Origin: Candidatus Micrarchaeia archaeon
GTDB lineage: Archaea; Micrarchaeota; Micrarchaeia; Burarchaeales; JAVZCV01
DNA length: 64,000 nt
Assembly: GCA_038874215.1 (NCBI GenBank)
Contig: JAVZCV010000002.1
Location: forward strand, 32,001-96,000
Direction: 5' to 3'
This document shows, piece by piece, positions 2,666 through 43,780 of this stretch (the stretch's first letter is position 1; every line of letters starts with the position of its first letter). The position numbers and the translations under genes are program-made. A model generated the notes under the pieces. The model searched no databases, was not told the DNA's origin, and saw nothing but the letters and a program-made list of their open reading frames with translations.

Positions 2666-3622
2666 CTAACTATCCGCTCTTATATTTAAAATTCTCCCCC
2701 TATCACTTTTTTTATCCCTGCATAAAAGAACAACCCTGCTTGGCTCATATTCCGCAGATACGATATAGCCACACACCTCTGCAAGTTCTTTGGCGAAAGC
2801 TCTTATCTCGTCATGTGTTGGCATATTGTTGAGGCTGAGCCCCCTACGCGGGTCCCGAGCCCCGCCAACATACACGAAGCTCTTAACCTCAACATATTCT
2901 GGCAGTGCTTTCTCAATGAGCTTTGCGTAACCTGCGGCATCAAGCATGTTATGCCCTTTTACAAGCGTCATTCTCAGAACGCGGCGCGTTGGCATGCTGT
3001 TTAAAATCTCCAAAGTTTCGTTGAAATTCACCCATGCTCTCTGGTACTTAGGGGCGCAAATACGGCGATACACCTCCTCGTTTGGTGCGTTGAGGGAAAC
3101 ATAAAACTGGGTAGGCAGCCTTTCAAGTTCTGCAATTTGTTTGGGAAGCGTTCCGTTCGTAACCAAAAATGTTGTCATCCCCCTCCTCCAGAACTCCTCA
3201 ATCAATTCAGACATATGTGGGTAAAACATTACCTCCCCAGTAAGGCTTATTGCGGCATGCTTCGGGTTTTTAGCTTCCTCCCACATCCCTTTGCTAACCC
3301 TCTTATTCCCCCCATAACCCGATACTATCCTAAGATGTTCTGCAATAATCCATTCAACAACATCAGCAGCTTCATCCCATTTAGCAGGGAGGTTCTCTTT
3401 TTCATCGGGCATAATCCGCCAGCAGAATATGCAACCCATGTTGCAGTATGTTGCAACAGGGGTGCACTGGATACATCGGTGGCTTTCTATCCCGTAAAAA
3501 GCATTCTTGTAGCACTTTTTCCCTTTGACAAGGGCATCGTGGAGCCATTTGCATCCCTTTACTGCGCTATGCCCGCCTGCGAAATGGTACTCTTGGTTTT
3601 TCATCCTCTCCATCAAACCCAT
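2666..3622 (-). CDS. taw1: 4-demethylwyosine synthase (radical SAM, TYW1/Taw1)
   Basis: HSAVKGCKW, CYK..FYGIESHRCIQCTP, CNMGCIFCWR and HAAISLTGE motifs; start could be ATG 3622, 3613 or 3604. Confidence 0.93.
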   Translation of the reverse strand: MGLMERMKNQEYHFAGGHSAVKGCKWLHDALVKGKKCYKNAFYGIESHRCIQCTPVATYCNMGCIFCWRIMPDEKENLPAKWDEAADVVEWIIAEHLRIVSGYGGNKRVSKGMWEEAKNPKHAAISLTGEVMFYPHMSELIEEFWRRGMTTFLVTNGTLPKQIAELERLPTQFYVSLNAPNEEVYRRICAPKYQRAWVNFNETLEILNSMPTRRVLRMTLVKGHNMLDAAGYAKLIEKALPEYVEVKSFVYVGGARDPRRGLSLNNMPTHDEIRAFAKELAEVCGYIVSAEYEPSRVVLLCRDKKSDRGRILNIRADS

Positions 3623-3655: not shown

Positions 3656-4813
3656 ATGGCGGTCCAGCTTGAGGTTCATGGGAAAAAAATAATCGTGCGC
3701 GATCCCGCTTCTGTCTCTTCACTTCAAAAGGGTTTCTATGGTGTGATGCACAAAGGCGTAATCACCCTCTTCCCCGAGGAAGCCCTTTATCTCATAGATA
3801 TAAGGAATGCAAAATGCTACGATAAAAATGGGAACGCGCTAAAATTCAACGATGTTGCCCAAATTTTCAAAAAGAAGAAACTACTCGCCCGCTACTTCAC
3901 CTATAAAGATTGGCGCGACAGAGGGCTCATAGTTCGTCCTGTTGAAGAGGCTACGGGTAACTACGGGAGGAATCCTGTCAAAAAATATCCCATGCGCGAG
4001 TTTGAACCTCCAAAATACTCTGTTGATGGGGTCTTCTTCCCAGATGATCTTTTTACAATAATAGATGACGAAGTTGTCGGCAGAGAGCTGTATGAGAACT
4101 ACTGGCTTGGCCAGTTTGCCTCATACAAAGCAGAACAAAGGGGCAGAGTAGCGAAACTTGACGCCTACGAGACTCTTTTCATGCTGAGGCACTGCAACCT
4201 CTCCCTCCATAACTCTGATGAGGAGAAGGTTATCAAGAACGCTACAAAAAGAAGAAGCGATTTCATGCTGATGTACGAGGTTTATGAGGATTGGAGGCTT
4301 CGTGGCTATATACTAAAAACTGGTTTCAAGTTTGGCACGCACTTCAGGCTCTATATGCCAGGCGCATCACCAGTTAAAAAAGGCGACGAATGGATACACA
4401 GCAAGCATGTAATCCACATATTCCCGCGTTCCAAAAAAATGATAATCTCTGAATGGGCGAGAGCAATACGGGTTGCACACAGCGTAAAGAAGACTTTTAT
4501 ACTTGCGATACCAGGCGCGAAGAAGAAGCACAGTTTGAAGAAACCCGATTTTCTTCTTTATCATCGCCACAAAACAGGCATAGAGACCCCAGATACAGGA
4601 AAGCCGAAGTTTCTCATGCTATCCCTAAGCGAAGAGGAGTACATAGGGGGTGAAGAACTCGCAGATGCTATAGAAATCGCAAAGAGCTTTGGGCTTGACC
4701 TAATGCTCGCAATAGCGGATAGGGAAAGCTCTGTTACTTACTATCGTGTAAGAAGGATAGAGTTGCAGGGCAGCAAATACGAATATTACGAGATAGAATG
4801 GGAGCAACCATAA
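3656..4813 (+). CDS. endA: tRNA-intron endonuclease, ~385 aa, three-unit (epsilon2/ARMAN-like) type
   Basis: EEALYL and YKDWRDRG unit; second unit VYEDWRLRGYILKTGFKFGTHFRLY...HSKH...RVAHSVKK; C-terminal PDF...SVTYY unit; ATG at 3656. Confidence 0.92.
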   Translation: MAVQLEVHGKKIIVRDPASVSSLQKGFYGVMHKGVITLFPEEALYLIDIRNAKCYDKNGNALKFNDVAQIFKKKKLLARYFTYKDWRDRGLIVRPVEEATGNYGRNPVKKYPMREFEPPKYSVDGVFFPDDLFTIIDDEVVGRELYENYWLGQFASYKAEQRGRVAKLDAYETLFMLRHCNLSLHNSDEEKVIKNATKRRSDFMLMYEVYEDWRLRGYILKTGFKFGTHFRLYMPGASPVKKGDEWIHSKHVIHIFPRSKKMIISEWARAIRVAHSVKKTFILAIPGAKKKHSLKKPDFLLYHRHKTGIETPDTGKPKFLMLSLSEEEYIGGEELADAIEIAKSFGLDLMLAIADRESSVTYYRVRRIELQGSKYEYYEIEWEQP

Positions 4814-43576: not shown

Positions 43577-43780
43577 GCTCCAGTAGTCTAGGAAGCTTTT
43601 CTTTCAAAAAGAAAAGTTTCATCAAAAGGCGAAAGAAAGGTTTGGACAACTCGGTCAAGGATACCGGCCTTTCGAGCCGGCGACCCGGGTGCCCTTCTCA
43701 GTATATGGAAAGGGCAGGGAATTCAAAGCAGCTTTTTGGAAAAGCTGCACCAAAAGCAACTGAAAATCCCGGCTGGAGCA
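43577..43780 (+). tRNA. tRNA-Glu(UUC) with three introns: 15/16 (43592-43649), 53/54 (43690-43721), 59/60 (43728-43766)
   Basis: Removing 58+32+39 nt gives 75 nt GCTCCAG-TA-GTCT-AGCTCGGTCAA-GGAT-A-CCGGC-CT-TTC-GA-GCCGG-CGAC-CCGGG-TTCAAAT-CCCGG-CTGGAGC-A; BHB central helices GTCT/GGAC, CCCG/AGGG and TTCA/TGAA. Confidence 0.92.

Follow-up and report, generated by a model that had tools for sequence, protein, structure and literature searches.

The window analysed here, a stretch of 64,000 nucleotides, comes from a tiny hot-spring archaeon whose tRNA-Glu is split by three predicted protein-spliced introns. The source assembly comprises 1.13 Mb in 38 contigs and is 91% complete. Splicing in silico and an intron-aware finder identified a tRNA-Glu(UUC) gene at 43577-43780 on the + strand, with introns at positions 15/16, 53/54 and 59/60. 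In the unspliced DNA of this gene, ARAGORN detected no gene and Rfam no family, as expected for multi-intron genes. The spliced sequence was recognized by ARAGORN as a clean tRNA-Glu(UUC) cloverleaf of 74 nt, or 75 nt with cuts set by the bulge rule. With the intron-aware finder the gene scored 25.3; the best score on the reversed-genome control was 23.2. The relevant features of the window are listed below (R1 and R2 are covariance models described further on).

43577-43591, 43650-43689, 43722-43727 and 43767-43780, + strand: exons of tRNA-Glu(UUC); the final base is the discriminator
43592-43649, + strand: intron 1 (15/16), 58 nt; central helix GTCT:GGAC, 4/4 pairs
43592-43632, + strand: module copy in intron 1; 13-bp hairpin plus CATCAAAAG tail; 61.3 bits with model R1, 53.9 bits with model R2
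43690-43721, + strand: intron 2 (53/54), 32 nt; own hairpin; central helix with 3/4 pairs (relaxed)
43728-43766, + strand: intron 3 (59/60), 39 nt; 9-bp hairpin, single-stranded tail ACCAAAAGCAAC, then TGAA and AA; central helix TTCA:TGAA, 4/4 pairs
3656-4813, + strand: tRNA-splicing endonuclease of the three-unit (epsilon2) type; Pfam tRNA_int_endo PF01974 (1.9e-30) and tRNA_int_endo_N PF02778

Intron 1 was set at 58 nt, ending one base before the naive reading, because its cuts follow the bulge rule of the intron-aware finder; the D-loop of the ortholog in G039 supports this boundary (G, C, L and f denote genomes, contigs, loci and families). The hairpin of intron 1 starts at 43592 and has 13 bp and a CAA loop, followed by ATCAAAAG; that of intron 3 starts at 43728 and has 9 bp and a TGG loop, followed by ACCAAAAG. 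An earlier note on this DNA had compared these two introns, and its letters and positions proved correct: AGCTTTT is common to both 5' arms, the 17-nt 3' parts are alike at 14/17 positions, and both hairpins begin at intron base 1. The 53/54 intron is a third one, which that note did not contain.

Genome-wide, raw scores of the intron-aware finder retained 39 loci versus 33 on the reversed genome; after rescoring, 20 loci exceeded the control maximum. The resulting intron catalogue of this genome is partial, since the finder demands T8, G10 and A14 and no stem introns, and thus misses tRNA-Gly(CCC), tRNA-Leu(CAA) and others. The tRNA-Gly(CCC) gene, at C4:39764-39915, has A and not G at position 10, and introns only at 53/54 and 59/60; ARAGORN also calls a tRNA-Gly(ccc) at C1:68719-68810. 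For tRNA-Leu(CAA), brute-force splicing led to 16 conflicting ARAGORN calls, and its three introns were read by eye. A metatranscriptome was also searched (one run, a tenth of the sampled words). Apart from one 189-nt piece downstream, it contained only pieces resembling exon 2, from other organisms, and no joint was seen.

Splicing motif and endonuclease

All three introns fit the bulge-helix-bulge rule, in which the central helix joins four exon bases, ending two before the 5' cut, to four intron bases, ending two before the 3' cut. In intron 1, a 3-nt bulge lies on each side of the central helix, each made of the two bases before a cut and the one after it. Read 5' to 3', this intron consists of the hairpin (5' arm Y and 3' purine arm R1), the tail, a second purine copy R3, and GGAC followed by AA. 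Two partners are available to its 5' arm, the adjacent purine arm and the second purine copy beside GGAC, and pairing with the latter would give the textbook motif. The computed folding energies are -11.5 kcal/mol for H + Y:R3 versus -9.4 kcal/mol for H + local hairpin. The tail as a flush helix holds for intron 1 and was ruled out by folding energy for intron 3 (-2.7 versus -9.0 kcal/mol).

The position of both hairpins at the first intron nucleotide can be attributed to the bulge-helix-bulge splicing motif itself: the bulge at the 5' splice site has to be flanked directly by a helix, which the hairpin forms. In most other introns catalogued in this genome, a hairpin unrelated in sequence occupies the 5' end as well, so that this feature is not peculiar to the module family.

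The endonuclease encoded at 3656-4813 matches PDB 4fz2/9w2k over its full length (E 1.3e-138). On account of this enzyme the organism was taken to be Micrarchaeota-like. The broad-specificity EndA to which the earlier note had appealed is thus present as an epsilon2-type enzyme within the same window, 40 kb upstream of tRNA-Glu, as identified by its Pfam domains and the match to PDB 4fz2. It should cut out the three tRNA-Glu introns, after which an RNA ligase would join the exons. Such splicing is predicted from sequence.

Candidatus Micrarchaeum acidiphilum ARMAN-2 has disrupted tRNA genes, including a pre-tRNA-Pro(GGG) with 53/54 and 59/60 introns (accessible text of PMC3239211). Its epsilon2 endonuclease is a three-unit enzyme of broad specificity, the structure of which is available (accessible text of PMC3488258 and PMC12397907). 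The present genome resembles ARMAN-2 in having 53/54 and 59/60 introns in one T-loop and a three-unit endonuclease. It differs in that, for ARMAN-2, the same portion of PMC3239211 reports neither a family of introns with common sequence nor a 15/16 intron, nor copies in rRNA.

A hairpin-plus-tail module in stable-RNA genes

In the module, which is about 40 nt long, a 5' arm of pyrimidines (CTTTTCTTT type) is complementary to a purine arm, and a short spacer leads from there to a tail that is again of purines (CAAAAGAAAG type). Regular-expression scans for a hairpin plus tail were too strict or too loose (one returned 76 matches, mostly noise), and covariance models were used instead. Model R1 was built from intron 1 and three paralogs; model R2 was built from 77 copies, with intron 3 excluded. 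The search pattern offered in the earlier note had three sites in the genome versus none in each of 12 simulated genomes, but two of the three sites had defined the pattern.

With model R2 (E up to 0.2), 15 distinct sites were found in this genome. Ten lie in tRNA introns, three in rRNA inserts (two in 23S, one in 16S) and two in spacers. A repeated hairpin-plus-tail mini-element in tRNA and rRNA introns, as had been proposed, is therefore borne out by models R1 and R2, and with R2 the copies number 13 in tRNA/rRNA introns versus 2 in spacers. The tRNA introns concerned are the following.

Introns 1 and 3 of tRNA-Glu (intron 3 a probable member, see below); 15/16 introns of tRNA-Gly(UCC) and tRNA-Gly(GCC); two introns of tRNA-Leu(CAA)
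Anticodon-loop introns of tRNA-Trp, tRNA-Ala(UGC) and tRNA-Ala(CGC)
Intron of a tRNA downstream of 23S, read by eye as tRNA-Pro(UGG)

All 13 RNA-gene copies are sense-oriented and, where the cut can be placed, start at intron base 1 or 2. Among the 15 sites, none is antisense and none lies in plain intergenic DNA without RNA-like features. The next match of model R2 (E 0.27), a tail-less hairpin within an open reading frame, was counted as noise. Intron 1 of tRNA-Glu, the 23S insert at L001:4055-4112 and a tRNA-Leu intron (37/38 by eye) have 33-36 nt in common at 94-97% identity. The intron 1 copy is identical at 34/41 positions to the tRNA-Leu and 23S copies, and also to copies in G165 and G147, which belong to other families. 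Likeness over the whole intron, including the 3' part, was observed for intron 1 of tRNA-Glu, the first introns of tRNA-Gly(UCC) and tRNA-Gly(GCC), and the 23S insert. The 3' ends of the intron 1-like copies diverge where pairing with the local exon is needed (GGAC versus GTAC). Finally, the 5' flanks of the copies here (TCTAG, CAAG, TACCC, TTGCG, TCAAA) display no common target motif, and no target-site duplication, a feature of MITEs, flanks the copies in this genome.

The 23S rRNA gene (L001:3563-6811, contig C14, minus strand) carries at least six mini-inserts of 30-60 nt that are absent or replaced in same-order 23S genes (query positions 175-215, 848-889, 2032-2061, 2701-2757, 2816-2857 and 3073-3116). 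Four of them are hairpins of about 42 nt with a loop starting with a T5 run, and form a separate family of their own. The 16S rRNA gene (L001:7164-9272, minus strand) measures 2109 nt for a model of 1478 positions, and holds a module-like mini-insert at L001:8528-8575. The two spacer copies, L019:1084-1205 (C1:23084-23205) and L018:243-282 (C38), were read by eye as C box, 12-nt guide, D' box, module, C' box, guide and D box. If real, these would be putative C/D-box sRNA genes with an internal-loop insert of about 70 nt; Rfam snoRNA hints for the copies at C1:23112 and C38:243 were sub-threshold (E 0.5-0.7).

A second intron-borne element, G-rich and about 55 nt long, was detected in tRNA introns of three families of the order (C17:13170-13292 here, L007 in G001, L024 and L037 in G005). 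It occupies a T-loop intron in this genome and in G001, where it is the 59/60 intron of tRNA-Glu. In addition, the BLAST list contained short words with a period of about 75 nt at C4:45199-45767 and C26:14771-15060, which suggests CRISPR-like arrays.

The earlier note had placed one element in two introns of tRNA-Glu. For intron 1 this holds: judged by its sequence, its core is a firm module copy, in which a hairpin of pyrimidine and purine arms is followed by a CAAAAG-type tail. Intron 3 is a probable member, with a weak pairwise score and E values of 0.08-0.18. Local alignment of the two introns gave a score of 21, rank 46 among the 820 intron pairs of this genome, and 318 of 5000 dinucleotide shuffles reached this score (p about 0.06). 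Intron 3 obtained 25.5 bits with model R1 (E 0.18 genome-wide) and, over 43728-43760, 27.9 bits with model R2 (E 0.077 genome-wide). Paralogs of intron 3 are present at 59/60 of tRNA-Gly(UCC), tRNA-Gly(CCC) and tRNA-Glu(CUC).

The likeness of introns 1 and 3 might result from convergence, as bulge-helix-bulge introns need a 5' hairpin, T-loop introns must end with GAAAA, and AT-rich arms of low complexity match easily. The pairwise rank and the shuffles are in line with this explanation, as are the unrelated 5' hairpins of most other catalogued introns and the inability of the intron 3 tail to form a flush helix. Several observations argue for common membership instead. Ranked by either family model over the 1.13-Mb genome, intron 3 falls within the 10 to 14 best distinct sites. 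Its AAAAGCTGCACCAAAAG is one base off the AAAAGCTTCACCAAAAG of copies in G147, G168, G136 and G167. Moreover, a T-loop intron of G018 contains a short-stem variant with the same loop and tail. We regard convergence as improbable, although not to the point of neglect.

The module and the intron sites in related genomes

Model R1 had matches in 13 of 28 genomes of the same order (E up to 0.1) and in 36 of 150 sampled genomes of the class (E up to 0.01); the 36 include the unpublished G061, on which no result depends. In 19 other genomes 65 matches were located. Twenty-two lie inside predicted tRNA spans (18 sense, 4 antisense), 13 within 100 nt of a tRNA, and 30 elsewhere, the last group including tRNA introns missed by the finder (by eye, for example L052, L024, L038 and L050). 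Ten copies were found in G120 (L063-L072). Nine of these belong to the last group and stand in arrays between genes, which are AT-rich and built from several types of hairpin-plus-tail unit; five of the ten are identical over 41 nt and have different left flanks. Intergenic copies of the module that belong to no intron, in either orientation, occur in G120, G137, G147 and G083. It also separates tandem 5' or 3' end fragments of tRNAs, often antisense to the tRNA, at L073, L077 and L079 (G137), L081 and L101 (G147) and L087 (G136), and long duplicated tRNA-end fragments flank copies in these three genomes. Where an intact tRNA precedes the module and a second copy of its 3' exon, the arrangement can equally be read as a T-loop intron, and may be a nascent intron.

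In relatives, the module thus behaves like dispersed mobile DNA, since it is intergenic, occurs in both orientations and lies between duplicated tRNA ends. The description of the element as a REP/MITE-like repeat, made in the earlier note, suits those other genomes, with their intergenic arrays, double orientation and flanking duplicated tRNA ends, but not the present one, where 13 of 15 sites lie inside tRNA or rRNA genes. In genus g17 (family f8), short-stem copies were observed about 25 nt after a TATA-like box at L030, L031, L034 and L042; at two of these loci an ATG follows the copy immediately, so that it could be part of a 5' leader.

Conservation of the module was assessed on an alignment fitted to the model. 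In this alignment 95.7% of the cells are paired and 10 of 13 pairs change on both sides, a result reached by 0 of 500 shuffles. The arm and tail motifs are invariant, and the outer stem pairs covary. Most of 29 other copies are 30-34/41 identical to intron 1, and its paralogs in this genome are no closer to it than copies from other families. By comparison, 23S genes within the order share 64-89% identity per aligned piece (71-78% for pieces over 1.4 kb). Set against this 23S divergence, the cross-family likeness of the copies indicates either a sequence that is recognised by something or an element that is shared horizontally.

The same features might be expected of a conserved motif that functions as RNA (or DNA) and does not move, to which a host factor (e.g. 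for processing, chaperone or termination) binds and which purifying selection maintains. The 80-83% identity across families, compared with the 23S values, the invariant arm and tail with a covarying outer stem, and the association with tRNA genes and tRNA ends in many genomes all agree with it. Such a motif is difficult to reconcile with the patchy distribution (36/150 genomes, 13/28 in the order), with orthologous sites that differ in presence or absence, with copy numbers ranging from 0 to 10 or more, with the five identical G120 copies in different left flanks, and with the occurrence of both orientations. We consider this explanation quite unlikely.

Filled and empty sites were compared among relatives. 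The 15/16 intron is absent from 5/5 tRNA-Glu(UUC) and 5/5 tRNA-Glu(CUC) genes, and this absence from all ten genes points to a gain. At 59/60, one of the ten tRNA-Glu genes contains an intron (G001), which is long and unrelated in sequence. The 53/54 intron is present in 3/5 tRNA-Glu(UUC) genes (G009, G001 and G010). In this genome itself, tRNA-Gly(CCC) has no intron at 15/16, nor tRNA-Gly(GCC) at 59/60. The 23S module site is unoccupied in G004, G019, G022 and G024, and eight further genomes have 208-858 unaligned bases there. Orthologs of tRNA-Glu with empty sites, which the earlier note had envisaged, thus exist, as do empty 23S sites. Introns 1 and 3 of tRNA-Glu would be lineage-specific gains by these comparisons, in which the closest genomes belong to other families of the same order, so that loss in all compared relatives is possible in principle.

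The likely source of the gained introns is tRNA-Gly. In G005, a homologous 15/16 intron is present in two neighbouring tRNA-Gly genes, which suggests that this intron is older in tRNA-Gly and that tRNA-Glu was probably the recipient. In the present genome, tRNA-Gly(UCC) has the identical three-intron layout with look-alike introns at all three positions, and its entire pre-tRNA aligns with that of tRNA-Glu(UUC) at 73%. Glu and Gly genes have the flanks GTAGTCTAG and TTCAAA/TCCCGG in common. Introns 1 and 3 of tRNA-Glu most likely derive from their same-position look-alikes in tRNA-Gly, and the same-site copies probably moved by recombination between the nearly identical D- and T-arm flanks.

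Alternatively, whole introns could have been copied only among stable-RNA genes, the hairpin being the conserved core of one intron lineage and not moving by itself. Either gene conversion would have carried them between tRNA arms that look alike, or they would have passed through RNA, with endonuclease and ligase acting in reverse and a copy back to DNA. The Glu and Gly alignment and flanks fit this explanation, and so do the sense orientation of 13/13 RNA-gene copies, their start at the 5' splice site, and the likeness, 3' part included, of the first introns of tRNA-Glu, tRNA-Gly(UCC) and tRNA-Gly(GCC) with the 23S insert. Gene conversion is, however, unable to explain the 23S or tRNA-Leu 37/38 copies, because their exon flanks differ, and no reverse transcriptase was above cut-off in this genome. 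Moreover, the 41-nt module by itself is intergenic, in both orientations and non-intronic, in the four genomes mentioned above. Copying restricted to whole introns is therefore judged unlikely.

Candidate mobilising enzymes were sought by domain. The Y1 transposase domain PF01797 had no match in this genome (91% complete), and nothing was above cut-off for reverse transcriptase PF00078 or the TnpB zinc ribbon PF07282. According to the earlier note, the element would be REP-like and moved by an HUH nuclease (Y1, RAYT or TnpA-like) recognising the hairpin and a fixed flank. The hairpin with its fixed tail does resemble REP or IS200/IS605 ends, a resemblance only, and Y1 genes are common in the class (57/151 genomes). 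Nevertheless, Y1 genes occur in 13/36 module-positive versus 44/114 module-negative genomes (kinship makes the comparison rough), and the copy-richest genomes G120, G136, G137, G083 and G147, with 5-10 copies each, have no Y1. With PF01797 absent here, no Y1 association among the 150 genomes and no common target motif in the 5' flanks of the copies, this part of the earlier proposal had to be abandoned; mobilisation by an HUH nuclease is very improbable.

Origin of the introns

Altogether, the reading that we prefer, at a probability of roughly 60%, is that tRNA-Glu has three bulge-helix-bulge introns, in which the core of intron 1, and probably that of intron 3, are copies of a class-wide module that spreads as DNA and is kept in RNA genes where it can be spliced. 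The module would be a dispersed repeat spreading at the DNA level. Copies landing in stable-RNA genes would persist only where the flanks allow a spliceable motif, and only such copies would remain in this genome. Inside an intron, the hairpin, one or two bases past the 5' cut, would supply the helix next to the 5' bulge, and four intron bases near the 3' end would form the central helix with the four exon bases before the 5' cut.

Some observations fit this preferred reading less well. The lack of antisense or plain intergenic copies here is odd for a DNA repeat that still looks recently copied, and no Y1, reverse transcriptase or TnpB domain is above cut-off in the genome. That the copies of this genome are no more alike than cross-family copies fits a conserved functional motif equally. 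Intron 3 membership is statistically weak, the gains could be losses in all of the compared families, and the 30 matches lying elsewhere are partly missed tRNA introns.

More tentatively, the module may be a small mobile element of Micrarchaeota-like archaea, recognised by its sequence, moved by a non-HUH enzyme and targeting tRNA and rRNA genes. Its insertion, sometimes with duplication of a tRNA end, would then be the birth of bulge-helix-bulge introns. The intact tRNA of G137, with the module and a duplicated 3' exon, could represent the nascent stage, and introns 1 and 3 of tRNA-Glu the fixed stage. Taken as a whole, this scenario is possible but doubtful.

REP and REPIN sequences with their RAYT, and the ends of IS200/IS605 elements, are dispersed and consist of a short palindromic hairpin with an asymmetric flank. 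Like REP/REPIN, the module is a dispersed hairpin with an asymmetric flank, of variable copy number and arranged in arrays in some genomes (G120). Unlike REP/REPIN with RAYT, it has no Y1 here and no Y1 association, and most copies lie in or beside tRNA genes. The extragenic location of REP is found for 9/10 copies in G120, but not in this genome, with 13/15 sites inside tRNA/rRNA genes. The module also differs from IS200/IS605 by the lack of a fixed short target sequence 5' of its copies, and from MITEs by the lack of target-site duplication at the copies in this genome.

A study by Fujishima et al. 2010 (Mol Biol Evol 27:2233) is said to be the source for the transposed tRNA introns of Thermoproteales. 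In that group, similar introns in different tRNAs have been read as intron transposition, by a mechanism given as unknown in the accessible text of the reports (PMC4033280, PMC4090602, PMC3239211; bioRxiv 10.64898/2026.10.13.758758). The module system is a Micrarchaeota-like form of Thermoproteales intron transposition. Indeed, intron 1 of tRNA-Glu at 15/16, the tRNA-Leu intron (37/38 by eye) and the 23S insert are near-identical within one genome. As far as those texts describe the Thermoproteales, near-identical protein-spliced introns occur there too in different tRNA species and positions of one genome. On the same basis, the present case differs in phylum and in having an epsilon2 instead of a heterotetramer endonuclease. 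It differs further in that a module of about 40 nt is shared, and not whole introns only, and that this module is also found in 23S/16S inserts and, in relatives, outside introns. No description of the module was found in the literature searched, the scope of which lay outside supplements and Fujishima et al. 2010. What seems to be new is that the shared unit is this short, and that it connects introns of tRNA genes with inserts in rRNA genes and with DNA outside introns throughout a class.

In the accessible text of a 2026 preprint on Asgard archaea, the route by which introns arrive is left open (bioRxiv 10.64898/2026.10.13.758758). Here the arriving sequence can be named: a module of about 40 nt found in D-loop, anticodon-loop and T-loop introns, in 23S/16S inserts and, in relatives, outside introns. 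Since filled and empty sites are both available, the origin of archaeal tRNA introns becomes testable by strain comparison and by biochemistry with the epsilon2 enzyme. The module offers a tangible starting point for explaining the acquisition of introns by archaeal RNA genes.
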